Virus record (IMG/VR): IMGVR_UViG_3300017913_000199
Span: 1 to 52,732 of that record
Length of the DNA stretch: 52,732 nucleotides
Source: a virus
Lineage: Duplodnaviria; Caudoviricetes
Reading direction: 5' to 3' (one strand)
Positions 142-44,502 of the stretch are shown here, in pieces. The notes below the pieces were generated by a model, which was not told where the DNA came from, searched no databases, and was given only the letters and a program-made list of their open reading frames with translations. Position 1 is the first letter of the stretch; every line of letters begins with the position of its first letter. Position numbers and translations under genes: made by a program.

Positions 142-1187
142 CCAATACCAGCACCTGCCTTAGAACTTCCTAAGTCTGCGGCACTTTGTCCACCAGAATA
201 TCCAAATTCTCCGGGTCGAGCAGTTTTTCCTACATCAAATGTTGGAGCTTTTGCAGTGTCAGTCCACGTTTTTGTCTTGTAATCAAACGCACGTACAGGA
301 ACCGGTAATCCGGTTCTTGAATCTATTGATGTTGCAACCCCGCTAAATGCGCCTCCATACCCACCAAAAATACCCCCTGTTCCTCCTGCGCTTGTATCCC
401 AACCGTATAAGTCTGTAGCAACAGCAGAAGTTATATTTGGTAAACCATACGTAGCTTGAGGAGACAAACCCATAGCAACAGACCGTGCAGGGCCATACGT
501 TGTTACAGTAGAAGATAGTAAAGCATTTGTGATTGCGTCTTTATAGTCAGACATAGAAACTATTCCGGGCGGACTTCCTATATTACCACTTAGAGTATAA
601 CCTTCAACGTTAAATCCAAGAGCACTTGCAATTTTACCCCCTATAGTATCGGCTGTCGGTTTAACTCCTACGAGTTGATTGCCCAGTAAACCTGCACTAT
701 AATCCTTGTTCTGAGACTTTGATGCTATATCCGTCAGGTTTGCCATGTTAAGCTCATACCCAAGCTCCGACAAAGGACCAAAAATTCCGGGCATCATTGC
801 GCCTATCGCTTGTGATGCCCCCGTAGCTCTAACTGTTCCTGTTAAGGGATTTAATGCAGTAGGAAAACCAAAGTAAGATTCTACTCTATCAGATACATAA
901 TCCTTTATAGCATCTACATACCCCGATAGAGAAGAGGTAGCGGGTGTAGCGGAAGGAGCGGAAGGAGTGGAAGGAGTGGAAGGAGTGGGAGTTGTCGGTG
1001 CACTATCTTCACCCCCCACATCTCTTTCAACTGTTGTACCAACTTCGGCTGTTGCAGCGGCTCTGCCCGTTCCTATGGGACCTATAGGAAACCCCCTGCC
1101 TCTTCTACCTCTAGGGGCAAAACCCCCCTCTACACTTCTTATAGTGTAGGGAAGCACTCTCAACCCTAGTGAAGAATAGTCCGCCAT
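1..1187 (-). CDS. N-terminal part of a ~740-aa putative virion protein that continues across the junction into 52591..51556
   Basis: ATG at 1187 (MADYSSLGLRV...) is in frame with the ATG at 134 (=52725); includes a PST-repeat low-complexity stretch at about 950-990. Confidence 0.8.
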   Translation of the reverse strand, partial: MADYSSLGLRVLPYTIRSVEGGFAPRGRRGRGFPIGPIGTGRAAATAEVGTTVERDVGGEDSAPTTPTPSTPSTPSAPSATPATSSLSGYVDAIKDYVSDRVESYFGFPTALNPLTGTVRATGASQAIGAMMPGIFGPLSELGYELNMANLTDIASKSQNKDYSAGLLGNQLVGVKPTADTIGGKIASALGFNVEGYTLSGNIGSPPGIVSMSDYKDAITNALLSSTVTTYGPARSVAMGLSPQATYGLPNITSAVATDLYGWDTSAGGTGGIFGGYGGAFSGVATSIDSRTGLPVPVRAFDYKTKTWTDTAKAPTFDVGKTARPGEFGYSGGQSAADLGSSKAGAGIGPGMGSATGLGMETGRDPGTNSGGGGGHTGGGASDGSEAQSDGYGGL

Positions 1188-1418
1188 TTAAATGTCTCTA
1201 GCCTTTACTGCCGCGTTGTAGTCGTCTTTTAAGCCTTTAAGCGTTTCCAGTGAAGTTATCTTCCCCTGCAGCCGGAACACTTCCAGTTCCGATCTGGCCC
1301 CCACCAACGCCCGAAGCGTCATCTGGATTTGCTCCTGCAGGAGCGTTTCCAGACTGTTCCATGCTTCCTTGTTGGTCACCAACGGGCTGACCTTCCGGGC
1401 CTGTTCCTTGTTGAGCAT
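1188..1418 (-). CDS. Small hypothetical protein downstream of portal
   Basis: 76-aa helical ORF overlapping the portal 3' end and abutting the next start. Confidence 0.7.
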   Translation of the reverse strand: MLNKEQARKVSPLVTNKEAWNSLETLLQEQIQMTLRALVGARSELEVFRLQGKITSLETLKGLKDDYNAAVKARDI

Positions 1419-3339
1419 TAGCTGCTAGTCCTTTCAGCATTTCGGCAAAGATTTGTGCTTCGTTTACATCGTTGACCAAGCTGTCAGGATCGATATCCTG
1501 TGCAATTGCAAGTTCGCGCATCAAATTAGGTATCTTGATGAACGGTGCCAGCATGGGGTTGGATACGGTCTGTAGCAGGGTGGTTAGTCTCTGACTACGA
1601 ACTTCTTTTTGCATCACAGCAGCAACGCCGCGAGGCTTAATTTCTAAATCACCTTCAATGTCTGGTGCATCTTCGTTAAACTGCATGTTCCATTGAAAAT
1701 ACGCTTCGCCCAGTGGCTTTAGCAGTGCATCATCAATGTTCTTAATTACAGTCTTTAGGGATAAGCTTGCGCCACCTAGAAGCATTGATAAGCCGGATGC
1801 TGTGCGTCCTGTACCACTAACGCCTGTCTGTCCGTGCATAATAGAAGGCAGTCCAGTCTCTTCGTCAGCAAGCTGTCGGCTAATCTGATACATCTGAATG
1901 TTTTCAGGTGCTGTATTAGGAAACTTTAAGCCGTTAACTGCCGTACCAGATACCCCAGATTGACGACGAAAAATCTTGCCGGGGAATATATCCATGTTCT
2001 GTCCGGGAACCAAGCTTGCTTCATCTACGTCAAGAACTAAGTTACCAGCAAGGGCTAAGTTGTCGATTGCCATCCGAACGTGACCGTTCATCAACATCTG
2101 TGCATCTTCCATGTTTTCTGCTACGCCAACACCCCACATTTGATAGGGGTTAATTTCGTAAGGGAATACATGAAAAGGGATACGAGCAGGGGTAAACGGA
2201 TTTAATACGCAGCGAATAACTTCATCCCCGCAAATCCATACATTGACCTGTACTTGATCCATCGGCCCCATACTAACGGGTACGTCCATACCGACTTCAT
2301 TAGCCATCTTTGCGTCTAAAACACCCCAGTATTCTAGAACTTCAAAACGATTTTCTTGATAGTACGCTTCCGTTTCATCTTCACGAATAGTATCTTCATA
2401 GTATTTATCTATGTAGTTTGAGCCTTTTGCAATTACGTCTTCGATAGCTTCTTTGTAAAAGTATGGATGATTGATAAGCCCACGAAGCTGCTGCCTATTC
2501 ATACGGTGTCGTTGGATGACGTATTCCGCGTCTTCTATGCTTGTTGCAGAAGGATCGGGGTGAAAGTCCCATACAGAAACGTGCTCTAAACGAGGTACGA
2601 TTTTTTCGTAAGGATTGTACTCCCTGTTTCCTTCTTCGTTCTTTTCCCACCTGTGCACACGCTTGTAAAAGTTAAACGGTCCTTTTACAATACCTGTACC
2701 CAATAGTGCAGATTCAAAAATAGCACTGCGAAATACATTTACAGCACTGGTATCCAGTAGCTGATCGTGAATTTGCTTTTCCATGTTTAGGGCGGCTTTT
2801 TGAGCAGGGGAAATCTGAGGCTCCCCCATTAAAGCCGGACCTTGTGCTAATGGTGCACCGTTATACCTGTCCTTCAATCCACCTAAGAAGTCTCCTGCAG
2901 GTGATGCTTCCAGTGCTCCCGGCTCTAAGGTTCTACCATCGCCTTCATACCCATAAGGATCAACAATATCATCTAAGGGCGTTTTTAAGTGAGCGAATTC
3001 TGCAATACCTTCAGGCACAGGTGTAGGTTCGATAACAAGCGGAAACTTTTTATTCGCAAACAAAATGTCAATGATCTGCCCGTATGCAGCAAGAACTTTT
3101 GTTTTGGTAATCTTGATGAATACCTTTGAACGTTCGGTTTCACGATACTGTGTTGTAGAATCGTAAATACCTCTGAAATTCTTAAACGCTTTTAGCCAAC
3201 GCTGTTCGTAAGCGTAACGCCCGTTTTCAGAATCTTCAAACTTTTTGCGAATATAGCCAGCAAGACCCGGCATATCCCCTTCAGGATCAATAACCGCTAC
3301 CTGATCATCATCTGGTGGTTGTAGGAAATTTTCAGACAT
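1237..3339 (-). CDS. Portal (head-tail connector) protein
   Basis: 700 aa, podovirus portal-like sequence (FESALLGTGIVKGP, WGVGVAENMEDAQ, PGKIF), located after terL. Confidence 0.9.
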   Translation of the reverse strand: MSENFLQPPDDDQVAVIDPEGDMPGLAGYIRKKFEDSENGRYAYEQRWLKAFKNFRGIYDSTTQYRETERSKVFIKITKTKVLAAYGQIIDILFANKKFPLVIEPTPVPEGIAEFAHLKTPLDDIVDPYGYEGDGRTLEPGALEASPAGDFLGGLKDRYNGAPLAQGPALMGEPQISPAQKAALNMEKQIHDQLLDTSAVNVFRSAIFESALLGTGIVKGPFNFYKRVHRWEKNEEGNREYNPYEKIVPRLEHVSVWDFHPDPSATSIEDAEYVIQRHRMNRQQLRGLINHPYFYKEAIEDVIAKGSNYIDKYYEDTIREDETEAYYQENRFEVLEYWGVLDAKMANEVGMDVPVSMGPMDQVQVNVWICGDEVIRCVLNPFTPARIPFHVFPYEINPYQMWGVGVAENMEDAQMLMNGHVRMAIDNLALAGNLVLDVDEASLVPGQNMDIFPGKIFRRQSGVSGTAVNGLKFPNTAPENIQMYQISRQLADEETGLPSIMHGQTGVSGTGRTASGLSMLLGGASLSLKTVIKNIDDALLKPLGEAYFQWNMQFNEDAPDIEGDLEIKPRGVAAVMQKEVRSQRLTTLLQTVSNPMLAPFIKIPNLMRELAIAQDIDPDSLVNDVNEAQIFAEMLKGLAANAQQGTGPEGQPVGDQQGSMEQSGNAPAGANPDDASGVGGGQIGTGSVPAAGEDNFTGNA

Positions 3340-3347
3340 AGGTGTCC

Positions 3348-3557
3348 TTAATAGTCGCGTTCTTCAGCCAATTTCATTACTGAAGGATCAACTGCTTTCT
3401 TTGTCATCTTCTTTGGCATGTCTTCAGTCAAAACACCTTGCTTTGCTTTGGTGTCGAACTCAAGACCTTCCCGATACAGTTTGTTGCAGCCCATCATGTC
3501 GTCAACATTAGTTTTGTCGCTGTTCATAATGTAAGCTGGACCCATATTCATGTTCAT
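3348..3557 (-). CDS. Hypothetical protein
   Basis: 69-aa ORF with GGAG RBS filling the gap before portal. Confidence 0.75.
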   Translation of the reverse strand: MNMNMGPAYIMNSDKTNVDDMMGCNKLYREGLEFDTKAKQGVLTEDMPKKMTKKAVDPSVMKLAEERDY

Positions 3558-3573
3558 GGTTTAGTCTCCCAAT

Positions 3574-5592
3574 TTATGGTGTGTAGGAAATGAAGCCTGT
3601 TGCATCTTCCCCAGAACGAGCGGCTCCTCTCGCTTGGCGTAATCTTTCTGGATTAGAAAGAAAAGAAGTAGGTACGTTTTGCACAGCATCCGGTACCCTC
3701 TGTCTTCTTTGAAAAGGTTCACTTTCTGTAATCTGTATTCTTGGCAGGTTATTTGTATTTGGCTGTAAAGATGGTGCAGGGGGTGCAAGAGATGGCACTG
3801 TAGGGGCGGAAGCTGCACCGGGTTCAGGCTGTCTTGCACGAGCGGCCTGTATCATACTAGGTTCTTCAGGAATTGCTTGTGCAACTGAAACAACGTCACT
3901 AGGAGCAATCGGAAGAAACTCTGTAGCCCCTGCTGCTACTCCTGCTGCACCAGCTATTGGAGCAGGTAATCCTAATGCTTCTGCTTGTTGCGTAACTGCG
4001 CTACGAGTTTGTTCTGCAGCGATAGCAGCCATACCATAGCCAACAGGGGGTAAGATAACTTTTAACGGCCCTTTGAGTGGCTTTGCCATGTTAAGAGCCT
4101 TTGCAAGAAAGTCCTCGCCTGATGCAACTTGGGCTGCTTTCTTTTGTCCTGACCGCGCTTCTGCAAGTTTACGTTCTGCTTCGACGATCTCTGGTGCACG
4201 TTCTGCACGTTCTATCATCTTAGCTTCTGCTGCTGCAGACTTTTCCTGTGCAGCTAGTTCGGCTGTGGCTGCAGCCTCTGCAGTCTTTGCTGCCCGAAGC
4301 TGTTCACCCTGTGCAATCTCTTCCGGTGTCGCTACTCTGGTTTCTACAGGTGCGCCAGACGGACGTGCAAGGGCTTCTGTTTCTGGGTAGTCTGCGTTAA
4401 AATCTTCAGGTAGATCTAAGCGAAGTGCTTCCCCCAATCCTTTTGCATCAGAAGCACCGACAGCATCTGCCATCATTTTTTCGTAGGCAAGAAGTATTTC
4501 GCCGCGCTGCTGTAAGCCACCAATGTCTTCTACATCAGTATAGTAGCCTGTCATAACTTTGTCAAGTAAACTATCGCCCCCACCTTTGTGGCTGATAATT
4601 TCACTTGCTAAGTCAGGACGACCAAGTTGGTTTGCAATGGCAGAAGCAGTGATACGTCGTAGATCTGTATAGCCAGAAGGTTTAGTTAATAGCTTGTCTT
4701 GTACTTCTTTTGGTATCTTTGGAAAAACGTGTTTCTTTAAAGCTGCAGATATCTTTCCTGTAGACATATCTGGAAAGAGTTCGCCTGTATCTCCTGCAGC
4801 ATCGAAACGACGATCTAAAATTGCACGAAGAACTGGACCTGCAGGTTTATCTGGCCCTTTTCCTTTACGACCCCCGCCTGTAGCTACTTCTGGATCACGA
4901 GCGATACCTGCTTCTCTGTCGTAGTATGGACGTGCAGGACTAACTCGTACTGCAAGGTCGCGGCTTGTACGCATACCTGCTAAGTCTTCTCCCCGATAGC
5001 CAAGAAGGGACGCCATAACAGCATCCCTTGTAACTGGATCAGGAATATCGCCTATGCCTTCCAAAACCGACTGGAGAACTTCTGGCGGTATGGCACCTTT
5101 TGCAAGTTTGCGGGTGCCTTTTGCAGCACCTGTACGAGACAGCTTTAAGTCGGTTACATTTGTTGTTGCTGTTCTAAACGGACGAACAATATTCTTTCGT
5201 ATGTCGTCGCCAATACCCCCTGTCGGTGACTTAGACAATTCTTCAAATGAATCGAACGGCTGATCTAAATCGATTTCTTTTTTAGATAGCTTTGCAAGGT
5301 TGTTTGAAATGCCCAGAGTATTACGGGCAGGACCAATTACCTCACGAGAAAATGCAGTATTAAACTTGTTGTAAAATTCTTTTGTATCGTCTAGTTCAGC
5401 AAGAAGGGGTTCATTAGGAACACCATCATTATACATCTTTGCAATAAAAGCATCACGGATAGTATAGTTACCCGTGTCGATACGCTGCTTTACTTCTTCT
5501 AGGGAAGGGATGTTACCATCAGGAAACAGGTTTGTTTGTACCTGACGAAAAGCATCTACAACCTTTTGTTCGTTTTTGGTTAGTTGTGCCAT
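3574..5592 (-). CDS. Tyrosine recombinase-like protein with long C-terminal extension
   Basis: Motifs in catalytic order: LLGYRGEDL (R), RKGK (K), YTDLRR (HxxR-like, H replaced by T), IISHK (H), TGYY (Y). Confidence 0.7.
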   Translation of the reverse strand: MAQLTKNEQKVVDAFRQVQTNLFPDGNIPSLEEVKQRIDTGNYTIRDAFIAKMYNDGVPNEPLLAELDDTKEFYNKFNTAFSREVIGPARNTLGISNNLAKLSKKEIDLDQPFDSFEELSKSPTGGIGDDIRKNIVRPFRTATTNVTDLKLSRTGAAKGTRKLAKGAIPPEVLQSVLEGIGDIPDPVTRDAVMASLLGYRGEDLAGMRTSRDLAVRVSPARPYYDREAGIARDPEVATGGGRKGKGPDKPAGPVLRAILDRRFDAAGDTGELFPDMSTGKISAALKKHVFPKIPKEVQDKLLTKPSGYTDLRRITASAIANQLGRPDLASEIISHKGGGDSLLDKVMTGYYTDVEDIGGLQQRGEILLAYEKMMADAVGASDAKGLGEALRLDLPEDFNADYPETEALARPSGAPVETRVATPEEIAQGEQLRAAKTAEAAATAELAAQEKSAAAEAKMIERAERAPEIVEAERKLAEARSGQKKAAQVASGEDFLAKALNMAKPLKGPLKVILPPVGYGMAAIAAEQTRSAVTQQAEALGLPAPIAGAAGVAAGATEFLPIAPSDVVSVAQAIPEEPSMIQAARARQPEPGAASAPTVPSLAPPAPSLQPNTNNLPRIQITESEPFQRRQRVPDAVQNVPTSFLSNPERLRQARGAARSGEDATGFISYTP

Positions 5593-5595
5593 TGA

Positions 5596-7266
5596 TTAGT
5601 ATCCGAATACTTCGTCTTGTGCTTTGTACACGTGGTTTTTGATTGCACCTAGTTGTTGATGTATTGCAGAGTATCCACTCATCCGTGTCATCACCATGTA
5701 TCGTAGTGCGTCGTATGCGTGGTCTTCAGCCTTCGTGTCTACGTCTTCGCTATTCGTTTTTGATAGAGGTATTCCCGCAAGCTGCTTAATGGTATGCTGG
5801 CAGGTAGAAAATACTCGTAAGCGTGGTTCTTCTGTGTACGGATCATTGCCTAATCTTCTGTGGATTTCCATCTTACCTTGAATACGGTTACGATCAGATG
5901 GCGTCCAGCGTACACCGCAACGCATCATTGTTTCTGCTATAGATGGGCCGAAACCTGTTTTGTTCCAACAAGACGAATCCAAAACAGTGTAGTGGGGTAA
6001 AGGATCTAATTCCTCTACTTCTAGTATTCTATCAGCTAAATCTTCTGCTGTCAAGTGTTTTGCGTATAACTCACGATAGACCCAAATATTATTATCCCAA
6101 TCAATAGCACCCCAAAGAACTGCAGACGGGGACGAATAGCCATAGTCCGCTGCTCTAATGCGAGGCCAATTGGTAGGTAATTCGAAAGGTTCGACAACGT
6201 GTCTACTCCGTGAAAACTCTGGGAAGGCCGCTCCCTCTGCCACATCCCAATCCCCCTCTAGAAGTCTCTTCCGCTCAACTTCTGGGAGCGAACGCAACAT
6301 GGCTTCGTATTGTCCGTCAGCCATGAGGTGGGGATTATCAGTCAACCGTGCAGGAACAAACTTGCGGTAGAACAACGGCTGACCTGCCTTCTCGTGACCT
6401 TTAGGCCACACAAAGGGCTTCATTGTATCTATGTCGTACGCAGCAAACGCTTCGTTTTCTGTGCGTGAGTCGATGTACATTTTCTTAACCCACCAGCCAC
6501 CGACGCCGCCGGGGTTGGCTGTACAACGCATGTATAGATTGTTTTGAAGTTCAGGATCTGTGGAACGTAGTCTAGAACGTAAATAGTCCCAGACGTAAGG
6601 GGTTGGGTATTGGGTTATTTCGTCTATGCCTATCCAGTTAAACGCCTGACCCTGAAAACGGGTTACGTCTTTATCCCTGTCTAGGTAGGTAAACCAAATC
6701 GTGGCACCTGATGGAAAGACCCACGTTGATTTTGATTCGCGGAACTTTGCTCCGGGGAACGCCTTTGTATATAGTTGGCGTGATTTGTCTATCAGTTCGG
6801 TTAGTTCGTCGAGGGTGCGTCTTAGAAGAAGACCCCGGTGATTGGGATTATGGCAATAGCGTAGGGGATCAGCAAGTAGAGCAAATGACTTACCACCGCC
6901 AGCCGCTCCCCCATATAGGACATCTCGCTCACCCGCTGAAAGAAACTCTTCTTGAGGACCGGGGTTAGCTTGGAAAACAACTTCAGAATCACCAACAAGG
7001 TCGGAAACGGATGGGGGTAGAACGGCGAGATCTCCCTCATCGATGACGTTTGTTCCTTTTCCAGTGACTCCCTTTTCAACTCTTCCAATTGTTTCTTCCA
7101 GCTTTCGGGCATAACTTCTTTGTGCTTCCGCTTTCTTTGTAGCTTGTGTAGCTTTCTTCCTTGCGGCCCGTAGACGCTTCTGTGCCCCACGACGGGCACG
7201 TTCAGCGGTGGACAATTGATAGGTTCGTTTAGTCTTTTTCGGCTGAACCGTTTGCTTTTCTGCCAC
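5596..7266 (-). CDS. terL: Terminase large subunit
   Basis: Walker A GGAAGGGKS, Walker B IGIDE, TANPGG, nuclease AADYG and DHAYDALRY; probable GTG start at 7266. Confidence 0.95.
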   Translation of the reverse strand: MAEKQTVQPKKTKRTYQLSTAERARRGAQKRLRAARKKATQATKKAEAQRSYARKLEETIGRVEKGVTGKGTNVIDEGDLAVLPPSVSDLVGDSEVVFQANPGPQEEFLSAGERDVLYGGAAGGGKSFALLADPLRYCHNPNHRGLLLRRTLDELTELIDKSRQLYTKAFPGAKFRESKSTWVFPSGATIWFTYLDRDKDVTRFQGQAFNWIGIDEITQYPTPYVWDYLRSRLRSTDPELQNNLYMRCTANPGGVGGWWVKKMYIDSRTENEAFAAYDIDTMKPFVWPKGHEKAGQPLFYRKFVPARLTDNPHLMADGQYEAMLRSLPEVERKRLLEGDWDVAEGAAFPEFSRSRHVVEPFELPTNWPRIRAADYGYSSPSAVLWGAIDWDNNIWVYRELYAKHLTAEDLADRILEVEELDPLPHYTVLDSSCWNKTGFGPSIAETMMRCGVRWTPSDRNRIQGKMEIHRRLGNDPYTEEPRLRVFSTCQHTIKQLAGIPLSKTNSEDVDTKAEDHAYDALRYMVMTRMSGYSAIHQQLGAIKNHVYKAQDEVFGY

Positions 7267-7546
7267 GATGCTTCCTTGCTTGCCCAATCAAAACACTAAG
7301 TTCTTTTGAAAATTCTGTTCCGGTCATCCCGTCTGGTACACGGATAGCATCTCCACGACGCATAGCTTCTTTGATTGCTTCCTCTGCTGATAGTTTAATC
7401 AGCCCTTCTTTATCACGACGAATAGTGGGAGCAACGTACTCTATGTCATCTTGTTCAAAACTAATGGTGCGAACAGTTTCGTTTGCATATGTAGCTGGGG
7501 TAGATGGGTCCATCGCTCGTGCCAACCATGCTGGACGTTCAGCCAT
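7229..7546 (-). CDS. Hypothetical protein with C-terminal RGRKANGSAEK motif
   Basis: ORF with RBS; motif shared with neighbours. Confidence 0.75.
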   Translation of the reverse strand: MAERPAWLARAMDPSTPATYANETVRTISFEQDDIEYVAPTIRRDKEGLIKLSAEEAIKEAMRRGDAIRVPDGMTGTEFSKELSVLIGQARKHRGRKANGSAEKD

Positions 7547-7561
7547 CGATAACTACCCCAC

Positions 7562-8032
7562 CTATGCCTTTGAGCCGTCTGCTTTTCTGCCACGATGAAC
7601 CTTTCCACCGTAGTTGTAAGCGGGTGTACTGCTAAACATACCTATAAATGCACCTATACCGGGTATAGACTTCAAGCCTATGCTTTTTGCAATGCTTGTG
7701 GCTGTCTTCGGTTTCAAGTCTTTTAGGATATTCTTTTGTTCGTTTATGTAAGCAGTTCGTACTTTACGGTCTTCTGTACTGAGGTTAGAAGGCTTAATTT
7801 TTTGTAACTGCGCCAAGCGCGTTTCTGCTGCAGCTTTTCTAGCCTTGTTTCTTCCTTGAGAAGTTTTCTCTTTACGGGTTTCGGCACGTTGTCTCTGTAT
7901 ATCCCTGCTTCTGTTACGCCGCTTATTTTCTTGTCTCGCGCTAATAGCTTCAGTAGCAGCTATTGCTCCTACCGCACCAGTCATTGCTCCAGCGTATCCT
8001 AACGCTTCTTTTTCTTTTCTACTAAGTTCCAT
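7562..8032 (-). CDS. Basic hypothetical protein with C-terminal YGGKVHRGRKADGS motif
   Basis: ORF with GAGG RBS. Confidence 0.75.
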   Translation of the reverse strand: MELSRKEKEALGYAGAMTGAVGAIAATEAISARQENKRRNRSRDIQRQRAETRKEKTSQGRNKARKAAAETRLAQLQKIKPSNLSTEDRKVRTAYINEQKNILKDLKPKTATSIAKSIGLKSIPGIGAFIGMFSSTPAYNYGGKVHRGRKADGSKA

Positions 8033-8048
8033 CGATAACTACCTCTAC

Positions 8049-8513
8049 CTATACCTTATAGTTTGCTCTGCGTCCGCGACAGGCTTTACCACCGTACTTC
8101 ATATCTGTACGTTCTTTTGGTGCGGGTCTACGTGCAGGGTTTCTTTTGGGAACTTTCATTCCCAACTCTGTGCTATAACCTTTTGTTGCGCCGGGGTGTG
8201 TTAAATCTGTCTTAAATTTATTTGCTTCAGCCCTACGCTTTTTCATAGTTGTTTCTTTTTTGTCTTTTATATTAAGCATAGGCTGCTTAACTTTTGCGTA
8301 GGTTTCTGAATCAAACTCACGTAGACGAACATCTTTGTTGATAAGTCTGTTCCGTGACCTGTCTTTTGGTACAGCAGCTATGTTTTGGTTCTCTACAATC
8401 TTATCATAAACCTTTTTTTGTTTATCAGTAAGATTCTTCACTTCAGCAGCAGTTATCTTACGAAAGCCTTCATTAAACTTTGCGCGAGCCTTATCTTCAT
8501 CATCAAGAGCCAT
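8049..8513 (-). CDS. Basic hypothetical protein with C-terminal YGGKACRGRRAN motif
   Basis: ORF with GAGG RBS. Confidence 0.75.
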   Translation of the reverse strand: MALDDEDKARAKFNEGFRKITAAEVKNLTDKQKKVYDKIVENQNIAAVPKDRSRNRLINKDVRLREFDSETYAKVKQPMLNIKDKKETTMKKRRAEANKFKTDLTHPGATKGYSTELGMKVPKRNPARRPAPKERTDMKYGGKACRGRRANYKV

Positions 8514-8907
8514 CGATTACGACCTCTTTCTTCGGTGGCAACAGGACTACGCCGTGCACTGCCGTTACATTGTGATTGATTTGTTCCTGCTTTGCTACGC
8601 CGACGCGATTCAAAAGCGACTCAGCGGCTTTGAGGCGCAGGTCATCACCTCTTTCCGGGGCGGGGTTATCTATCGTCTGAATTACACGGTTAGCTGCCTT
8701 CATTGCGTTGGTAGCTAGGATGGTTTTGGTGCGTTCGATGATCTCATCTGCAAGTGTGGACTTGAGCCACGCTGCAGATCCACGAGAATACCCTGCATCG
8801 ATGGCAGCAGCAGTTACCTGACCGCCATTTTCAAATAGAAGTTCCAAGAACTGTTCCTGTTGCGGGGTCAATTCCTTCTTTTTGTGTGTCTGGGGGAGTA
8901 GATTCAT
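8503..8907 (-). CDS. terS: Terminase small subunit
   Basis: LTPQQEQFL...AAAIDAGYS HTH-like N-terminus, LKAAESLLNRVG, upstream of terL. Confidence 0.8.
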   Translation of the reverse strand: MNLLPQTHKKKELTPQQEQFLELLFENGGQVTAAAIDAGYSRGSAAWLKSTLADEIIERTKTILATNAMKAANRVIQTIDNPAPERGDDLRLKAAESLLNRVGVAKQEQINHNVTAVHGVVLLPPKKEVVIDGS

Positions 8908-9103
8908 CGTTGTTTTCCAAAACCGACTTACAGCGACTACGTATTACAACTTCGAATACCTGTCGCTCGTAAATGTACGTTGCCATTTCATCGTTTCGCA
9001 ACATACACTCTTTTTCTGTGGGGTATGGACCTTCTGTGTCGCGTATTTCACGGCACAAATCTGGTCCAGTAGCTAGGCAGACAAGAATCCAAGATTCAAA
9101 CAT
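8831..9103 (-). CDS. Small Cys-containing hypothetical protein
   Basis: First ORF after the late promoter; AGGA RBS. Confidence 0.65.
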   Translation of the reverse strand: MFESWILVCLATGPDLCREIRDTEGPYPTEKECMLRNDEMATYIYERQVFEVVIRSRCKSVLENNDESTPPDTQKEGIDPATGTVLGTSI

Positions 9104-9221: not shown

Positions 9222-9250
9222 AGTATACCGTCTATAACTATGTAAGTCAA
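9222..9250 (-). promoter_or_regulatory. Sigma70-like promoter for the packaging/structural arm
   Basis: TTGACT-17bp-TATACT on the minus strand. Confidence 0.8.
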
Positions 9251-9311: not shown

Positions 9312-9340
9312 TTGACAAATCGGAAAATTACCTATACAAT
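9312..9340 (+). promoter_or_regulatory. Sigma70-like promoter driving a putative small RNA
   Basis: TTGACA-17bp-TACAAT with an A/T-rich upstream tract. Confidence 0.8.
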
Positions 9341-9346
9341 GGGGTT

Positions 9347-9438
9347 AAGACCCCCCGGGAAATAACCCATTACCCCCCGGCTACCCCTACACGTCGGTTT
9401 CATACCCCTTCGGGATACCCCGTTGGGGTCTTTTTTTG
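9347..9438 (+). ncRNA. Putative ~90-nt small RNA
   Basis: Begins at the predicted +1; AAGACCCC pairs with GGGGTCTT; ends in hairpin ACCCC-GTT-GGGGT plus a T-run; no credible ORF. Confidence 0.55.
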
Positions 9439-9491
9439 CCTAAACTCCGCCGGGGTAACCCGCCGGGGCACCCCTACACGTCGGTTTCATA
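9383..9491 (+). repeat. 22-bp perfect direct repeat ACCCCTACACGTCGGTTTCATA (9383-9404 and 9470-9491)
   Basis: Direct reading of the sequence. Confidence 0.95.
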
Positions 9492-9826
9492 GCCATATCG
9501 GTAACCCCTCAAATATAAAATTGCTGTCGGGATTGCATACAGATACCGGTACCCCCCGGGTGGCCCTTGTGTACCCCATAGGGGCGTCCCCCATTGCCAA
9601 TGCCGTGGATCACCATCGACAGACAAACCCACAAAACCGCCGCGCATATTTTCCCCGCCTATATCGCGCCGTTTGTTTCTTTTTTTTAGTCCCCGTTGAC
9701 ACCTTGCCCATATAGAAAACCTGCACGGCAAGCCGTAGAGGTCAACATAACACACAAAACAAACACCCCCGACGCTGGATTTGTCCCGCAATATCAAACC
9801 CAAACCGGATATTTCAGGCGATAGTC

Positions 9827-9861
9827 AAAAAAGAACCCCGCCGTACTAGCCAAGCGGGGTT
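9827..9861 (-). terminator. Intrinsic terminator ending the early operon
   Basis: AACCCCGC/GCGGGGTT stem with adjacent A-run on the plus strand. Confidence 0.75.
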
Positions 9862-9888
9862 AAGTTGGGAGGAAATGCGTCGGTTTCG

Positions 9889-10053
9889 TTAGCCGGTTTC
9901 GATTTCTTCAATCGCATCTATTAGAAGATCGCCGATTGTGTCTTCGTTATCTGTCCCGCCATGAACCCGTTTTAAGTGCAACAGGTTGTGTGCTTTCAGC
10001 GTTTTGTAAACATCGACGAGATTGAAATAAGCATTATTACTAGGATCAGTCAT
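9889..10053 (-). CDS. Hypothetical early protein
   Basis: MTDPSNN start with GAGGA RBS. Confidence 0.65.
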   Translation of the reverse strand: MTDPSNNAYFNLVDVYKTLKAHNLLHLKRVHGGTDNEDTIGDLLIDAIEEIETG

Positions 10054-10072
10054 TTTTTCCTCTTCTCTTGAG

Positions 10073-10183
10073 TTACTGCCTGAAGTCTTCTTTTGCATGT
10101 TCCCAGAGCGTTGCAAATAGGCACCAACAAGCAATCAAAACCCATGCCAGCAACACTAGCATGATCACGTTAGCTATTGTCAT
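10073..10183 (-). CDS. 36-aa single-TM membrane peptide
   Basis: Manual translation MTIANVIMLVLLAWVLIACWCLFATLWEHAKEDFRQ, GAGG RBS. Confidence 0.55.
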   Translation of the reverse strand: MTIANVIMLVLLAWVLIACWCLFATLWEHAKEDFRQ

Positions 10184-10415
10184 CGCTGGCCTCTTTAACT
10201 GTCAGGTTAAGCCGTGCAATGGTGCGCGGGTTGTCGGTTGCATGCGTGTAATGATCAAAGCCCAATGTTCGAAGCAGTGTTTTTGCCGCCGATGCCTGTG
10301 TTTCGAGTGCTTCAATAGACTGCAAAATCAGGTCGGCTTCTACTGTGGTAATGGCAACCACGCGCTTTGCGTCGGTTTCGAAATTGTCTTTATTCAGTGA
10401 AATTGTGCTTTTCAT
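10170..10415 (-). CDS. Hypothetical early protein
   Basis: MKSTISL start after AAAGGA RBS. Confidence 0.7.
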   Translation of the reverse strand: MKSTISLNKDNFETDAKRVVAITTVEADLILQSIEALETQASAAKTLLRTLGFDHYTHATDNPRTIARLNLTVKEASDDNS

Positions 10416-10495
10416 AACGTCTGTTCCTTTTCGTTGGTTTAAGTGAGACTGGCAACACCGCGCTGCCAGCCCCAATATTGTTAGTCGGTTTCGGA

Positions 10496-10870
10496 TTAGC
10501 TTGCAAGCCGATATTTTGGCAAGCGATATCCCCGCCGGACACTAACGATTTCGTAACCATGCCCCCGCAACCGATGAATGGCGTTTTGCACCGCCTTTCT
10601 ATCGCACCCAGTTTCGCGGCAAAGCGTGTTGATATTGACGCCGTGTTTACGACTGGCAAGAGTCCGATAGATTCGGGCAAGCTGAGAATTCGGACGAAAC
10701 GGGCGTCTATCTTTGCCCCGCTGCCCCCGCGTTTTCTGCCGCGACTCGTCGGCTTCACCCGTGCCGAATTCACCCCGCAATTTAGAAAGCAGTTCCTGCC
10801 GGATATCTTGCCGGACAGCCGACACAAGTTGGTTGCAAAGCTCTTGGATGTGTTCGTTGTTGGTTGTCAT
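10496..10870 (-). CDS. Winged-helix DNA-binding protein
   Basis: GVNINTLCRETGCDRKAVQNAIHRLRGHGYEIVS HTH-plus-wing pattern; AAAGGA RBS. Confidence 0.7.
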   Translation of the reverse strand: MTTNNEHIQELCNQLVSAVRQDIRQELLSKLRGEFGTGEADESRQKTRGQRGKDRRPFRPNSQLARIYRTLASRKHGVNINTLCRETGCDRKAVQNAIHRLRGHGYEIVSVRRGYRLPKYRLAS

Positions 10871-10894
10871 TTTATCGGTTTCCTTTCTTTCCGA

Positions 10895-10972
10895 TTAAAG
10901 GATCATTAGAAGAATAGTTACAAGCACGATGATCCAAACGAGCTTGTAAATGGTTGCGATCAGTTCTGCCAT
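10895..10972 (-). CDS. 25-aa membrane peptide
   Basis: MAELIATIYKLVWIIVLVTILLMIL, coupled to the upstream stop. Confidence 0.5.
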   Translation of the reverse strand: MAELIATIYKLVWIIVLVTILLMIL

Positions 10973-10973
10973 A

Positions 10974-11987
10974 TTATGCCGCAAGCCCCTCAAGATATAA
11001 CCATGACGGCGACGTGATAACGTTCCGAACATCGTCGTTGCGTTTACGCTGCACCATGTGTTGGCTGGCTGTGTTCTTGCCAGTCTGCCGGTCAACACCA
11101 TCTGCCCCAGTCCATGTCACGTTTGTATGGGTTGCCCAATGGGTAAGAGCATTATAGGCCGCCCACATGGTTGAACCCAGTTCCTGCTTTTCCGCATTGA
11201 ATTGGTGCATTAGGTAATTGAACAAACGTTCGTTGACTGGTTTAACCTTGCCTTGTTCGGCTGCTGCCCCAGATTTATAGCAAACAGTTTGCGCCAAGAT
11301 ATCCCCGAATTGTTCATCGGATAACTTAGCACCCCGCCACAATTGCATCTGGTCAAGCTGATTTTCCCACATAGACAAACCCATTGCCGCCTTGCTAATC
11401 AATGCGGTTGGCTCAAGATTTTTGGTGTGTTTTGATTTTTGGTGGTAAGCCTTTTCCCCGCCGAAAACTAGCGTATTGCGGCACAGGTCACGATAAGCCC
11501 CACTGAATATCTGGAAAGCCCAACTCATATCAATACTGTTGAAGATATCCATGCGGCAGACAACGTTATCCTGCTTTTCACCGACGCCATGCTGCAAGTC
11601 TAAAAAATGCACAGTCCGATGAGCACGCAGCCCCCCGTCGTAGATTCGATCCATGACCGCAACGTTACTGGTCGGCAAGTCGGTTGCACCCAAGACATCG
11701 GCATGGTTGGCAAATAGTTCATCATGCGGCACAAGTTTATAGCTGGAACCGACAGGTCGGGTCTTTAACACTTCCCCAGTTGCCGTATTCTGCAAAGCCG
11801 AATAATCGGGCATCGGCTGATACTCGTTCAATTCGAAATCGCTATAATGTTGAGCGGTTACCGCCTCAATTGGCACCCGCTGCACCGAACCCATATCTTT
11901 AAAAATAGATATGTCGGCAATGTTGTTGTGTTCATAGACGGCCGCGCCGCCATCGGTTTTGTATTCAGGTTGGATTAAATCAAACAT
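10974..11987 (-). CDS. DUF932-family protein
   Basis: YKLVPH, NSIDMSWAF...RDLCRNTL and TMWAAYNALT motifs; start MFDLIQ after AAAGGA. Confidence 0.8.
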   Translation of the reverse strand: MFDLIQPEYKTDGGAAVYEHNNIADISIFKDMGSVQRVPIEAVTAQHYSDFELNEYQPMPDYSALQNTATGEVLKTRPVGSSYKLVPHDELFANHADVLGATDLPTSNVAVMDRIYDGGLRAHRTVHFLDLQHGVGEKQDNVVCRMDIFNSIDMSWAFQIFSGAYRDLCRNTLVFGGEKAYHQKSKHTKNLEPTALISKAAMGLSMWENQLDQMQLWRGAKLSDEQFGDILAQTVCYKSGAAAEQGKVKPVNERLFNYLMHQFNAEKQELGSTMWAAYNALTHWATHTNVTWTGADGVDRQTGKNTASQHMVQRKRNDDVRNVITSPSWLYLEGLAA

Positions 11988-12065
11988 GTCCGTTTTCCTT
12001 TCGTTGATTGAACATACCATATTTAAATCAGAAATTGACTGCACGGGCAAATAAAAAATGCAGAT

Positions 12066-12096
12066 AAAAAACGGGACGGGAAAAAATCCCGCCCCG
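12066..12096 (-). terminator. Intrinsic terminator
   Basis: CGGGACGGGA/TCCCGCCCCG stem plus A-run on the plus strand. Confidence 0.65.
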
Positions 12097-12231
12097 CCCC
12101 GATGGATCAGCCCCCAACTCAACTGATCCGATGATGCCACCGCCGCCGGAACCAACAACCGATGCGGCATGGCACCCCAAAAAACAAAGATAGGCATTGA
12201 CAATATTTTAAGCATAGCCTGACAAAATTTG

Positions 12232-12915
12232 TTAGTGGGTTTGAAATAAAACCTGCATATCTTTTGCCGCCCAGCATATCGTACAGGTTGAACACGATTC
12301 GGTTTGCCCCGTTTGTTCTGGACAGATTACAGATTTGTTTTTTGCTGGCTTGATTAAGTCGGCACTGTTCGCGCTAAACTTATAATCGGGTGCGTTGCTA
12401 AAACGAACAGCGAATCGGTCACCATAGCCAACCTGTACAGCGCGAATAGCCAAGCCAATATCACTTGTCGGTTTATATCCGGTAAATCCCCAGATAGCTA
12501 AATTGTCAAATTTACGCAACAGTTCGCCCCATAGCAAAACATATTCTTTAGAATAGAAATCGCCCAGAACATGCAGCCGGATAATCACCCCGCGATAGGT
12601 CGCGCAAAGTTCCGCAACTTCTTTTTTCAATGCGGTTTCAAGTTCAAGGCCGTGCTGGATACGATGCCCAAACATCATATTGTTACCATAGCAATCATCC
12701 CAGTGATAGCAATAGCGGGGACAGGTTGCCCGTTCTTCTAATGTGAGGGTATAAATCACATATCCTTTAAACTTGCCCTTTTTGATTACGGGCAATTTAT
12801 CTTTGCTTAGCTTTTTATTTTTAGACTGTTTCAAAACCGATTTGGATTCGGCAACTGTGCGGCGGCTCTTTGGGTACATAGTCGCGGCGGGTTTGTTTAT
12901 ATCTGCTTTTTTCAT
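12232..12915 (-). CDS. GP88-like Cys-rich phage protein
   Basis: TCPxxCxxxxxCY, IRLHVLGDF, C-terminal CP...CxxCxxC. Confidence 0.65.
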   Translation of the reverse strand: MKKADINKPAATMYPKSRRTVAESKSVLKQSKNKKLSKDKLPVIKKGKFKGYVIYTLTLEERATCPRYCYHWDDCYGNNMMFGHRIQHGLELETALKKEVAELCATYRGVIIRLHVLGDFYSKEYVLLWGELLRKFDNLAIWGFTGYKPTSDIGLAIRAVQVGYGDRFAVRFSNAPDYKFSANSADLIKPAKNKSVICPEQTGQTESCSTCTICWAAKDMQVLFQTH

Positions 12916-13172
12916 TAGCTATACACCCCGCTCAGCATAACAACACCGTCACCACACTGGCACGAAACAGGCGCGTCGGTTTCAATCCAAACACGCGCAC
13001 CACATGATAATGGTTTATTAGGTGAATAAACAACAGTAGACGCACCGCCAATATCTACACGGTCGGCATAAATATTGCGCTTGCTAGTTTTAACTGTAAT
13101 TGCGGGGTCGGTTGTCCCGTTCTTTTTATTTGCACGAATAACGTGCTGATTAATGTGAATTCGTTTTTTCAT
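12915..13172 (-). CDS. Conserved marine phage hypothetical protein
   Basis: IHINQHVIR...PLSCGARVWIET pattern. Confidence 0.8.
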   Translation of the reverse strand: MKKRIHINQHVIRANKKNGTTDPAITVKTSKRNIYADRVDIGGASTVVYSPNKPLSCGARVWIETDAPVSCQCGDGVVMLSGVYS

Positions 13173-13306
13173 CGGTTGGTTTCCTTATTTTTTACAATTT
13201 CAAAATCAAGGCTTCCATCTTCTGCCAGTTCTGCGATATAGTCAAGCACATCGGACAGAGTTACTATTTCCCTTTCGAATTCTAATCTTATTACAACTTC
13301 AATCAT
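13169..13306 (-). CDS. 45-aa hypothetical protein
   Basis: Manual translation MIEVVIRLEFERE...; AAAGGA RBS; ATGA coupling to the next gene. Confidence 0.6.
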   Translation of the reverse strand: MIEVVIRLEFEREIVTLSDVLDYIAELAEDGSLDFEIVKNKETNR

Positions 13307-13341
13307 CGGTCGGTTCCTTTTCGTTTGTTGGTTTGCAAACG

Positions 13342-15921: not shown

Positions 15922-15998
15922 AGTAGGTTATCCCCATAGGGTATGTTAAATAAATAGGTAGCACGGCCTGTCAAGTCGTGTCAACCAAAAAAATGCAG

Positions 15999-16027
15999 TT
16001 GACAAGGTTTGATGTATCGATTATTCC
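15999..16027 (+). promoter_or_regulatory. Promoter of the replication operon (possibly leaderless mRNA)
   Basis: TTGACA-17bp-TATTCC; ATG at 16035 lies at the predicted +1. Confidence 0.6.
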
Positions 16028-16034
16028 TTGTGAC

Positions 16035-16838
16035 ATGAAATCACCGAACTGGCTAAAAGGTTATGTTGAGTCGCTGGACATCCAGCCGTTGGGACGCTAT
16101 CGGTCTGACTGCCCTGTGTGTGGCAAGTCGAATACGTTTAGCGTAACCGACGATGGATTGCAACGCATGTGGTTTTGTTTTCATGCAGACTGCAATGTGT
16201 CTGGTCGTACCGGTATCACACTATCACGACAACATGCAAATGGTGTATTCAAGCGGTCACAGGCAAATGTGCCTGTTCCCCGTACTGGTAACACTTACGA
16301 ACTGCCGCCGACATTTGTTAGTCTTTCTCGTAACTTAGACGCTGAACTTTATGTAAAACGTGTACACGCATACGATGCATACCTTGCTGGTCGTGCTGAC
16401 ATTCGGTATGATTTTAAACGGAACAGGGTTGCATACATAGTCAAGGCTGACAATAAAATCGTAGATGCAGCAGGACGTTCCTTAGATGGACGTAATCCGA
16501 AGTGGTACAGATATAACAATGCGTCTGTTCCTTTTGCTTGCGGTGACAATAATACAGCTATAATTGTTGAAGATTGTGCAAGTGCATGTGCAGTCAGCAA
16601 CTTAGTAGCTGGTGTGGCTTTGTTGGGAACCAACTTGTCAGATGAACACGTTGACTTTTTATCCAAGTACAAAAGGGTTTTTGTCGCGCTTGACAAAGAT
16701 GCAACCGACAAAGCACTTGACATGGTGAAGATTCTATGTAGAAAAATACCGACAAAGCTAATGGTATTAAGTCAAGATTTGAAAAACCTAAACAACGAGG
16801 AACGAGATGAGTTCATACGATCCCATATCAATAGATAA
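16035..16838 (+). CDS. DNA primase
   Basis: Zn finger CPVC...CFHADC, TOPRIM IVED and ALDKDA. Confidence 0.9.
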   Translation: MKSPNWLKGYVESLDIQPLGRYRSDCPVCGKSNTFSVTDDGLQRMWFCFHADCNVSGRTGITLSRQHANGVFKRSQANVPVPRTGNTYELPPTFVSLSRNLDAELYVKRVHAYDAYLAGRADIRYDFKRNRVAYIVKADNKIVDAAGRSLDGRNPKWYRYNNASVPFACGDNNTAIIVEDCASACAVSNLVAGVALLGTNLSDEHVDFLSKYKRVFVALDKDATDKALDMVKILCRKIPTKLMVLSQDLKNLNNEERDEFIRSHINR

Positions 16839-18036: not shown

Positions 18037-18317
18037 TGGTACACAGAAATACATTGCGTAATCGTAGACTGCGTGAAAGCAGGGGGCGGTGGCTTGACAT
18101 ATACAAGCGCAATAAGGGCTGTGAGATGTGTGGTTACAACGCTGATGCTACTGCATTGCAATTCGATCACATAGATAGGTCAACTAAAGTAAACTCTATA
18201 TCGAACATGCGGCATTTTAATTTATCTACATTAATTCAAGAACTTAGAAAGTGTCGTATACTATGTGCGAACTGCCATCACATACATAGTAATAAGCAAA
18301 GGAAAGAAGACGAATGA
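18036..18317 (+). CDS. HNH endonuclease
   Basis: CxxC...FDH...LCANCH. Confidence 0.8.
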   Translation: MVHRNTLRNRRLRESRGRWLDIYKRNKGCEMCGYNADATALQFDHIDRSTKVNSISNMRHFNLSTLIQELRKCRILCANCHHIHSNKQRKEDE

Positions 18318-43472: not shown

Positions 43473-43910
43473 TTAGGCTATCCGAATAACAGCGTTACTT
43501 GCATCGGCTGCAGGGAATTCAATAGTCAAGTCACCTGCTGAAGCACTAACTGTGCCGCCAAAGTCGATTACAGCAATTGCTGCGTTACTTGCGGCAGTGT
43601 TGTAGATGATACAACCATCGGCAGACAAGGTTACGTTGGTAAATACTTCGTCTGTAAAGTCAACGATTGCAGTGGTGCCATCTGTGGAGATGCTTGCACC
43701 GTCAAGAACTTGACCACCAGCAGTGTAGCCAGTTCCGCTTGCTTCGTCAGAGTTGCCTGTTACATCTGAATAGTTGGTTGTTGCTGCACCATAAGTTCCG
43801 CTAGGGGAAGCTTTAATTAGTGCAAGTTTAAGAGAGTCTGTGTCGAGGTCGTGCGTACCGCCCAAAAGTTCAGACTTGAACGACGTGCACATCGCGGTTG
43901 TGATTGCCAT
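43473..43910 (-). CDS. Virion structural protein
   Basis: SFKSELL, GYTAGG, VIDFG pattern. Confidence 0.7.
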   Translation of the reverse strand: MAITTAMCTSFKSELLGGTHDLDTDSLKLALIKASPSGTYGAATTNYSDVTGNSDEASGTGYTAGGQVLDGASISTDGTTAIVDFTDEVFTNVTLSADGCIIYNTAASNAAIAVIDFGGTVSASAGDLTIEFPAADASNAVIRIA

Positions 43911-43931
43911 TGGGTTACTCCTTCAGGGCAG

Positions 43932-44291
43932 TTAACGATTTGGTTCGTAAAATTCTTCGGCTGCTACTACTACCGTAAGTGTATCTACTGTACCTGCAGC
44001 AACTATAATCTTGTCTCCTTCATGGCAGTACAAGGGCTTGTCTACTGTAAATATAGACTCGCTACCCTTACCTTCCACAGCATGTGAAGAAAACAATGTG
44101 TGAGTGGTCGTAGTATCAGCTTCGTAAAATTTTAAGGTGTAGTTACGGTTGCTGTTGTCACTATTAGTAATTAAAATGTGTTCAATGTGAGAGGAAAAGT
44201 TAATGGGGACAATATAACAGTCTGTGTCACTTGTAGTTGACAGAGCCGTTGCATGAGTTACAAACTTAGAACCTCCAGATAATACGGGCAT
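43932..44291 (-). CDS. Putative structural protein
   Basis: Beta-rich 119-aa ORF. Confidence 0.65.
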   Translation of the reverse strand: MPVLSGGSKFVTHATALSTTSDTDCYIVPINFSSHIEHILITNSDNSNRNYTLKFYEADTTTTHTLFSSHAVEGKGSESIFTVDKPLYCHEGDKIIVAAGTVDTLTVVVAAEEFYEPNR

Positions 44292-44502
44292 CAGTTTACT
44301 TTCTTACTATGATGTATTTATTTTTACCAATTTGTTTCAGGTCTTTGCTTTTTAGTACAGCAGGTGGGGATGTTCGCCTCATACACTGAGGTTTTAGGAT
44401 TTGGGATCTAATAAGCTTAACACTGTTCTGTGTTTTTTCCAAAACCAATCCCCTACTTTTGTAAACGGTTTACCTGCATACAAAAAACTAAAACCGACGC
44501 AT

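Follow-up and report, generated by a model that had tools for sequence, protein, structure and literature searches.

One of the questions raised by the marine virus genome held in IMG/VR as record IMGVR_UViG_3300017913_000199 concerns the presence, along much of its length, of a short DNA word in far more copies than chance allows. The window considered here is the whole of that record (52,732 bases, of which 52,591 are unique) and is a complete HMO-2011-type marine podovirus; the word is the octamer AAACCGAC, or GTCGGTTT on the other strand, built around the heptamer AACCGAC. Why has the phage accumulated this word, what reads it, and why do sister phages carry other central bases in its place? 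The word is supported as a DNA signal under selection, and the reading favoured here, to which we would give a probability of about 0.4, is that it acts as a Chi-like stop signal for a helicase-nuclease.

The word and its variants

There are 32 exact copies of the octamer in the window, 16 on each strand, which corresponds to one per 1.65 kb, and none of 100 dinucleotide shuffles reached this number (mean 1.55, standard deviation 1.16, maximum 4). A sequence-only reading of this DNA had listed 31 copies by eye, all at correct coordinates, overlooking the copy of GTCGGTTT at 26339; its assumption of about 44% GC and 1-2 copies by chance agrees with the 44.6% obtained from base counts and with the shuffle mean, and the "about 24" further sites that it ascribed to the heptamer come to 25. 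The core AACCGAC/GTCGGTT is thus found 57 times between positions 655 and 47522, 27 times on the plus and 30 times on the minus strand, against 5.06 +/- 2.59 expected, or about ten times chance. While 32 of these sites extend to AAACCGAC, 11 extend to the decamer GAAACCGACG, for which 0.11 copies are expected. An order-3 Markov model predicts 2.2 octamers and 7.1 heptamers. Under a maximal-order model the octamer is wholly accounted for by its own heptamers (32 observed, 31.9 predicted), so that the excess sits in the core, where the hexamers AACCGA (75 against 47.3) and ACCGAC (80 against 55.4) stand out with z about 6. The flanks show a preference for G at -2 (31 of the 57 sites) and A at -1 (32 of 57). 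One-base neighbours of AACCGAC are at or below expectation, with the exception of AACCAAC (27 against 11.2), and two of them, AAACGAC (3 against 11.3) and AACTGAC (3 against 7.0), are depleted.

The excess is also independent of coding. By a crude open reading frame (ORF) model made for this analysis, 24 of the heptamer sites read in the sense direction and 25 in the antisense direction, the other 8 lying between genes or at their edges, and all three phases are occupied on each strand. Two codon-preserving shuffles were run 300 times each with about six intergenic copies kept in place; synonymous-codon permutation left 8.75 +/- 1.75 octamers and 15.4 heptamers, and codon permutation 6.40 +/- 1.16 and 12.5, against the 32 and 57 observed. 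The contention of the sequence-only reading that codon use does not explain the word, drawn from its presence on both strands, in different reading frames and between genes, therefore holds, and the enrichment persists under the Markov and codon-shuffle models that had been proposed as a check on it. It is this survival of codon shuffling, together with neighbours that are not enriched and with the amino-acid differences and variant words considered below, that supports (G)AAACCGAC(G), with its AACCGAC core, as a selected DNA signal instead of a consequence of codon use.

The relatives of the window show how changeable the signal is. Twelve cultured relatives hold 0-2 copies of the octamer each. 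When 110 loci or contigs from close relatives in IMG/VR (TerL 81-97%, primase 61-88% identical) were typed by their density of AAC-NN-AC, 19 proved to be of CG type, 10 of GT type, 4 of GA type and one each of AT and CA type; a further 10 are mixed, 16 weak, 27 without a word and 22 too short. The main words in these uncultured phages are therefore AAC-CG-AC, AAC-GA-AC and AAC-GT-AC, with other relatives wordless. For instance, contig G001 (42 kb, 93% DNA identity to the window) carries 51 copies of AACCGAC, while G005, at 81% DNA identity, has 33 of AACGAAC against 9.0 expected and just 3 of AACCGAC. G003 has 39 of AACGTAC, locus L135 has 21 of AAACGTAC against 2.0 expected, and L093 has 12 of AACATAC within 6 kb. 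Word type is not predicted by TerL identity, as loci at 93-94% lack the CG word and equally close relatives show no excess. In the tree of polymerases the GA clade falls inside a CG-bearing clade and GT forms a separate clade, the 4 changes of word type needed being the minimum possible.

Within a word type, sites are kept modestly above background; across word types they are kept below it, so that the conservation in relatives on which the sequence-only reading would have had its signal judged is found in the one comparison and not in the other. Thus, 38 of 46 window sites are kept in G001 (background for all heptamers 0.705, p = 0.046) and 21 of 27 in G002, also of CG type (background 0.635, p = 0.087), against 2 of 21 in the GA-type G005 (background 0.313, p = 0.020 for a deficit). 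At just one of the 21 sites aligned with G005 does that contig read AACGAAC, and the CG and GA words have therefore been written at different places in the two lineages. Thirteen of these 21 sites differ in amino acids, compared with 26.4% of all three-codon windows in the same genes (p = 7e-4). Judged from these alignments, turnover of the sites is rapid and often alters the protein. An example is the tandem pair AAACCGACAAACCGAC at 19463-19478 on the plus strand, two adjoining copies (19463 and 19471) already noticed by eye and confirmed here, which lies inside the DNA polymerase gene and encodes ...ENRQTDL...; relatives have NISSNL at this place in GA types and RSSEL in GT types, and the polymerase has thus been recoded to accommodate the two copies. 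In the CG-type G002 (L152-L153), the tail module in the first 13.4 kb is nearly unalignable with window DNA yet holds 22 copies of AACCGAC, from which it follows that the word is maintained in divergent modules.

Two further repeated sequences were observed. A second word, GCTGACAA/TGACAAA, is strongly one-stranded and occurs in the early region of many relatives irrespective of their AAC-NN-AC type; it is seen in L054, L062, L097 (12 copies, split 1/11 between the strands), L107, L136/L137 and L141/L142, and in the window at about 12.2-13.7 kb. In the Pelagibacter phage HTVC033P (L034-L036), CCACCACC/GGTGGTGG occurs 45 times with a strong strand bias (36 against 3 non-overlapping copies), and this looks like a coding repeat, not a both-strand word.

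Arrangement of the word along the genome

Genes run leftward from 1 to 15.8 kb, rightward from 15.8 to 26.4 kb, where the replication module lies, and leftward again from 26.4 to 52.7 kb. The late operon starts from a promoter-like site, TTGACT-17-TATACT, on the minus strand at 9222-9250 (a consensus match only), at the head of the packaging genes, and reads from 9250-9222 through terS, terL and the portal gene, continuing over the circular junction as far as the tail genes. The small terminase subunit gene, terS, at 8503-8907 on the minus strand, is assigned from its place upstream of terL and a weak Pfam Terminase_2 match (E 1.7e-4, under the curated cut-off).

Site density differs among four modules (chi-square p = 2e-5). 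It is highest, at 2.45 sites per kb, in the early leftward block (9.27-15.8 kb), followed by the replication module (1.70), the tail or late module (0.90) and the head/packaging module (0.28). The last of these occupies 1-8920 and 47523-52732, which are continuous over the circular junction and together amount to about 14.4 kb; it holds only 4 of the 57 sites, with none at all in the second part. This poverty is not due to a shortage of places, since the word is used in only 4 of 40 peptide-compatible windows there, compared with 12 of 32 in the early block, 18 of 48 in the replication module and 18 of 66 in the tail module. Very recent import of the head module was considered and rejected: terL DNA identity between CG and GA or weak types is 85-88%, like that of the polymerase gene (about 85%), and recent import therefore provides no explanation.

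When the circular map is opened just upstream of terS, a start point picked from gene order, successive quarters hold 29, 15, 9 and 4 sites. Orientation also depends on distance from this point (Mann-Whitney p = 0.020), with minus sites nearer the start and plus sites nearer the end, such that, with the origin fixed there, AACCGAC tends to lie on the strand whose 3' end is at the nearer map end. The sequence-only reading had seen something of this arrangement in the octamer, and a recount upholds its ten copies within 9.4-15.7 kb, the single orientation of the first seven to the right of 9.3 kb, and the opposite orientation in the structural arm, where it applies to 7 of the 9 octamers between 27 and 44.5 kb. 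Sites are more clustered than random, with a coefficient of variation of spacing of 1.23 against 0.97 +/- 0.12 (1.05 on the plus and 1.46 on the minus strand, against about 0.95-0.97), and the widest site-free intervals measure 5.9-13.7 kb.

Most telling is a dense cluster that recurs in different lineages just upstream of terS and the late promoter. In the window six sites (9393, 9480, 9879, 10233, 10371 and 10484), all with AACCGAC on the minus strand, fall within 9393-10491, a span of about 1.1-1.2 kb between the late promoter and a winged-helix gene (wHTH) at 10496-10870 on the minus strand (Pfam HTH_11, E 1.1e-9), which adjoins the cluster; the copies at 9393 and 9480 lie in a common 22-bp repeat. 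In the GT-type contigs G003, L140, L138, L134 and L105, and in the GA-type contig L050, a co-oriented cluster of the contig's own word lies at the matching position and points the same way relative to terS, and the GT-type clusters include three copies at 23-24 bp spacing. Own-word clusters therefore occupy the same terS-upstream place in the CG, GA and GT contigs examined. From the cluster a run of one orientation extends over 9393-13315, with 12 of 13 sites on the minus strand (the exception being 11747); its length by itself is not significant, and a comparable run is found in G001 at 17501-19611. As a separate observation, a plus-strand promoter-like site, TTGACA-17-TACAAT (11 of 12 consensus positions), points into the gene-free stretch and is followed by a hairpin with a T-run at 9417-9429; the short unit predicted from these, 9312-9440, would hold one copy of the word (GTCGGTTT at 9393).

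Among cultured phages the nearest to the window are HMO-2011-type marine podoviruses infecting Roseobacter RCA strains, SAR116 and SAR11, with TerL 49-59% and polymerase 38-48% identical, and megablast against deposited phages returned no match to the window. Besides terL and the portal, the genes recognised include those for a DnaG-like primase, a DnaB-like helicase, a family A polymerase, a Cas4-domain exonuclease, a 3'-5' exonuclease, endonuclease I and a class II ribonucleotide reductase. The family A polymerase is split into a separate 3'-5' exonuclease ORF (17982-18898) and a polymerase ORF (18792-20399), upstream of which is a small ORF with a weak HNH match that is 99% identical in G001 and 47-49% in G002 and G005. 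A search for known RNAs in the window gave no Rfam match at gathering score and no tRNA. In IMG/VR the record is marked as 100% complete, with direct terminal repeats. The 141-bp repeat in question (1-141, identical to 52592-52732, with no word site inside) probably reflects overlapping assembly ends on a circular map rather than a physical end; the largest k of MEGAHIT is 141. To our knowledge most HMO-2011-type phages have no known host. They are described as among the most abundant of marine viruses (PMC9038755).

Candidate readers of the word

Among the readers that the sequence-only reading had listed, without choosing one, for a selected DNA signal, a Chi-like one agrees best with the anatomy, the terS-upstream end being the point around which both density and orientation are arranged; strict KOPS-like polarity, nicking and modification have found no support. 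A helicase-nuclease, most likely the host AddAB or RecBCD, would load on free double-strand ends, and degradation would halt when the nuclease meets the word on the 3'-ended strand; the proposal is that, with the nuclease stopped in this way, the phage came to accumulate copies. In P22 and SPP1 the terminase cuts near terS and packages towards terL. Were the terminase of the window to act likewise, the early-region side would be left as a free end, the last to be packaged and the first to be injected, and it is on this side that the sites are most crowded and share one orientation. A nuclease loading at this end would then come upon AACCGAC on the 3'-ended strand after no more than a few hundred bases, and again and again further on. 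Both this packaging geometry and a reader that is a host enzyme are what we infer from the arrangement. Sister lineages facing a nuclease of slightly different specificity would carry AAC-GA-AC or AAC-GT-AC, and wordless relatives would rely on some other defence, such as an inhibitor.

A candidate for such a defence exists among the relatives. In 9 wordless or weak loci the helicase gene is followed directly by an acidic ORF of 51 amino acids (isoelectric point 4.6), which is missing from all 23 word-bearing loci with sequence at this point. It was delineated in contig G004 (L158:3636-3791), with homologues in L101, L107, L113, L122, L123, L132, L136 and L137; it matches phrog_9309 (function unknown) but no Pfam family, and no PDB sequence at E below 0.1. 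Its presence and absence echo a choice between Chi and an inhibitor, and one might guess at an inhibitor role for it. Among the window ORFs scanned, no known RecBCD-inhibitor family was detected, most of the small ORFs having no family at all.

The accumulation of Chi by phages has precedents, being also the subject of Bobay, Touchon and Rocha 2013 (PMC3784561). A study of lambdoid phages (Genome Res 2025, PMC12315714) describes 8-32 Chi sites in those without anti-RecBCD or Rec modules, including 23 of GCTGGTGG in phage LLS, about one per 1.9 kb, and 32 of GCTGGCGC in Pseudomonas phage MD8; the same source reports that the copies cluster near the open end entered by RecBCD, that recently imported modules are Chi-poor, and that orientation in its Chi-rich phages is 20:3 and 32:0. 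The window resembles these phages in having a short asymmetric word far above chance, at a similar density of about one per 1.7-1.9 kb, in its concentration towards one end of the genome (here the terS-upstream point, which would be the exposed end), and in having word-poor modules and wordless relatives.

A further likeness comes from roseophages related to the window. Cultured members (loci L001, L022-L033 and L043, including CRP-3) carry another both-strand word, GCGCTGGG/CCCAGCGC, which contains the GCTGG core of the E. coli and Pseudomonas Chi. It occurs 18 times in CRP-2 (0.5 expected), 19 in CRP-603 (0.4), 11 in CRP-207 (0.8) and 7 in CRP-235 (0.7), and CRP-3 has CCAGCGCC 14 times against 2.0 expected; CRP-1, CRP-9 and CRP-13, on the same host strain, are without the word. 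In CRP-603 the terS-based geometric rule places GCGCTGG on the 3'-ended strand (p = 0.014). On the host side, a Lentibacter metagenome-assembled genome from the roseophage host family has 256 copies of GCGCTGGG against 110 for the control, 2.3 times as many, and 57 of 70 neighbouring pairs on the same contig (a hand count of listed rows) lie on one strand, so that there GCGCTGGG behaves as a polar chromosomal word. A methylase was tried as the cause of the roseophage word and rejected, as it is present in CRP-2 and CRP-207 and absent from the word-bearing CRP-603.

For the word of the window no comparable host has been found. Among 301 Alphaproteobacteria drawn evenly from the class none was enriched; the window has 607 copies per Mb, and the densest of these genomes about 128. 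In the two with most copies per Mb, stretches of 134 kb and 200 kb contained 16 copies against 15.2, and 19 against 22.7, from order-3 expectation. The survey covered the Alphaproteobacteria alone and the true host may lie outside the sample. The tRNA-Met core of the CRP-3 attP matched at least 120 stretches, leading to Rhodobacteraceae, and the host-side primer of the CRP-3 integration assay had no match in the bacterial genome contigs searched. Two alphaproteobacterial genomes, G209 and G067 (L403-L422), were seen to have a top over-represented octamer in common, CCAAAGCC/GGCTTTGG, with 38 copies against 8.9 and 53 against 15.3 in the fetched stretches. A scan of IMG/VR for two word copies within 30 bases returned at least 117 stretches, and among the matches listed a few unrelated viral contigs carry 4-7 copies on one strand. 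Four of these, L239, L237, L203 and L240, hold 5-7 copies of AACCGAC within 5-11 kb (GC 0.63 in L239 and 0.68 in L237), an excess that is uncertain as they were picked for having two copies.

Several points weigh against a host Chi. The absence of an enriched genome from the host survey is one, and another is that, among the listed IMG/VR matches, both-strand enrichment is confined to relatives of the window. The overall orientation is balanced, at 27 plus and 30 minus, where the published Chi-rich phages are one-sided, and polarity with a free breakpoint is not significant (permutation p = 0.40); the orientation trend is likewise not significant in G003 (p = 0.30), CRP-2, CRP-207, CRP-3 and CRP-235. 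Packaging direction and physical ends are assumptions. The word corresponds to no described Chi and is not rich in G, and this virulent-type marine podovirus owns a Cas4-like exonuclease and an endonuclease I, whereas the published Chi-rich class is without Rec modules. Four wordless genomes lack the 51-residue ORF, the association of which covers perhaps three lineages by counts that ignore phylogeny. In CRP-4 to CRP-7, which infect the same RCA hosts but are unrelated, CCAGCGC is present in only 2-8 copies. Finally, since sisters about 81% identical in DNA use other central dinucleotides, hosts with three specificities would be needed for phages this close, and this is plausible only because the phage group is described as jumping between bacterial orders (PMC9038755).

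The main rival, which we consider rather unlikely, is that the reader is a sequence-specific DNA-binding protein encoded by the phage. The terS-upstream array would then be its primary site (origin iterons, a pac or terminase array, or a centromere-like element) and the scattered copies secondary sites for loading or titration, with the centre of the word changing as the recognition surface changes. The form of the word family is in keeping with this, as AAC-NN-AC has constant flanks and a variable centre that follows the replication-module tree, with GT and GA each forming one clade; so too are the iteron-like 23-24 bp spacing of the GT-type clusters, the co-oriented copies in a non-coding stretch beside terS, the adjoining wHTH gene, and the restriction of both-strand enrichment to phage relatives with no enriched genome in the alphaproteobacterial survey. 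What is missing is a protein that tracks the word. A gene-by-gene association over 1-26 kb, the span to which the short GA-type contigs confined it, found no gene that cleanly follows word type in its presence or in its alleles. The wHTH has three alleles, one of which is common to the CG loci L045 and L128, the GA locus L050 and the mixed loci L051 and L147, and TerS has no CG-specific column among 11 CG and 29 non-CG sequences; like the primase, considered below, neither is supported as a reader. Many close relatives are wordless yet possess the same proteins. Iteron and pac arrays are local, which leaves about 50 further copies, worth amino-acid changes, unexplained, and we know of no iteron or pac system that scatters some 50 exact copies through coding sequence at such a cost. 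Scattered sites do exist in the stoperators of Cluster A mycobacteriophages, repressor sites of which dozens of exact copies run through coding DNA, with variants in related phages. The window word is also short, asymmetric and scattered through coding DNA, with variants in relatives, but stoperators are co-oriented with transcription, whereas here sense and antisense copies are nearly equal, the adjacent wHTH does not follow word type and no repressor has been identified.

Less probable again is a Chi that is private to the phage, a self mark read by its own nuclease machinery, such as the Cas4-family exonuclease together with the DnaB-like helicase. Unmarked host DNA would be degraded, or ends processed for recombination-dependent replication, while marked phage DNA is spared, and a switch of the central dinucleotide (CG, GA, GT or AT) would keep sister lineages isolated from one another. 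The density gradient and the end-facing orientation suit any end-loading nuclease, word type follows the replication module, and Cas4 enzymes can recognise short motifs on 3' overhangs. The Cas4-domain exonuclease of the window (21223-22176, plus strand; PHROG Cas4-domain exonuclease, E 4.8e-27), which has a PD-(D/E)XK motif and a C-terminal cysteine cluster, gave the best result of the gene-by-gene scan, namely five CG-specific columns (167, 239, 243, 256 and 273, four of them within residues 239-273) in a comparison of 10 CG with 11 non-CG sequences. These columns are few and would be explained equally well by shared ancestry, so that they could be at most a weak pointer to a reader. Against a private Chi there is also the presence of the same exonuclease, at 60-70% identity, in wordless relatives, and the literature searched offers no biochemical precedent.

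A start site for the DnaG-like primase, with 5'-GTCGGTT-3' as template and ACCGAC as primer, is disfavoured and would be a surprising outcome. The primers of the T7 and T4 primases begin with AC and are laid down on a GTT-type template triplet, all the variant words keep the 5' AAC that complements such a triplet, and the 27 and 30 copies on the two strands are alike. The clustered spacing argues against it, as start sites should be even at Okazaki-fragment length, and a 14-kb module would be served by just 4 sites. The primase itself (15978-16838, plus strand; matches to PHROG DNA primase and Pfam Toprim_2) has a CPVC...CFHADC zinc ribbon that is nearly invariant in 34 primases of all word types (CG, GA, GT and wordless), and in the same alignment the protein is a mosaic relative to word type, with no segment confined to CG types. 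The window word resembles the site of the NrS-1 primase-polymerase in being a very abundant 7-8-mer on both strands of a phage genome, and differs from it in its clustering and in the constancy of the zinc ribbon across words.

A target for a modification, nicking or restriction-like enzyme of phage or host is just as improbable. Recognition sites of the Type IIG/BREX kind are short and asymmetric, end in ...AC and are quick to switch specificity, all of which the word resembles; host restriction targets, in contrast, are normally avoided by phages and not accumulated, modification alone gives no selection for extra sites, and no methyltransferase or nickase was found among the approximately 67 ORFs scanned, save for the weak HNH match. 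A word without function, its excess arising from composition, from codon or dipeptide usage, or from biased mutation or repair (a bias of repair would likewise deplete AAACGAC and AACTGAC), is largely refuted by the persistence of the excess through Markov and codon-preserving models, by the presence of sites in all frames and orientations, by the surplus of amino-acid replacements at sites, by the module differences and position-specific clusters, and by equally close relatives that show no excess.

Known systems and biological meaning

The DNA uptake sequences of Neisseriaceae and the uptake signal sequences of Pasteurellaceae occur about once per kb, on both strands and independently of frame, with dialects that differ by 1-2 bases, and the window word is similarly dense, both-stranded and frame-independent, with dialects between lineages. 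Those words belong to a bacterial genome and its competence machinery, whereas here the excess is in a phage lineage; no genome with an uptake-sequence-like density was found among the 301 Alphaproteobacteria, and we know of no use that a phage would have for DNA uptake. The literature searched describes no over-represented word for HMO-2011-type phages. Chi-like accumulation is known as a kind, and what is new here is the balance between the strands, the new word family and the own-word clusters at terS.

What the word means for these phages depends upon its reader. If it mimics the Chi of the host, then each lineage word (AAACCGAC, AAACGAAC and AAACGTAC, with GCGCTGGG in the roseophages) would predict the Chi sequence of its host and so provide a sequence-only handle for host assignment, and the choice between accumulating Chi and encoding an inhibitor would reach virulent marine podoviruses. 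If, instead, the reader is encoded by the phage, the word would represent an undescribed genome-wide recognition system with a specificity that changes between phages about 81% identical in DNA, and a private Chi would amount to a self/non-self DNA code owned by a virus. Whether the reader belongs to host or phage, the variant words are natural specificity-swap experiments.

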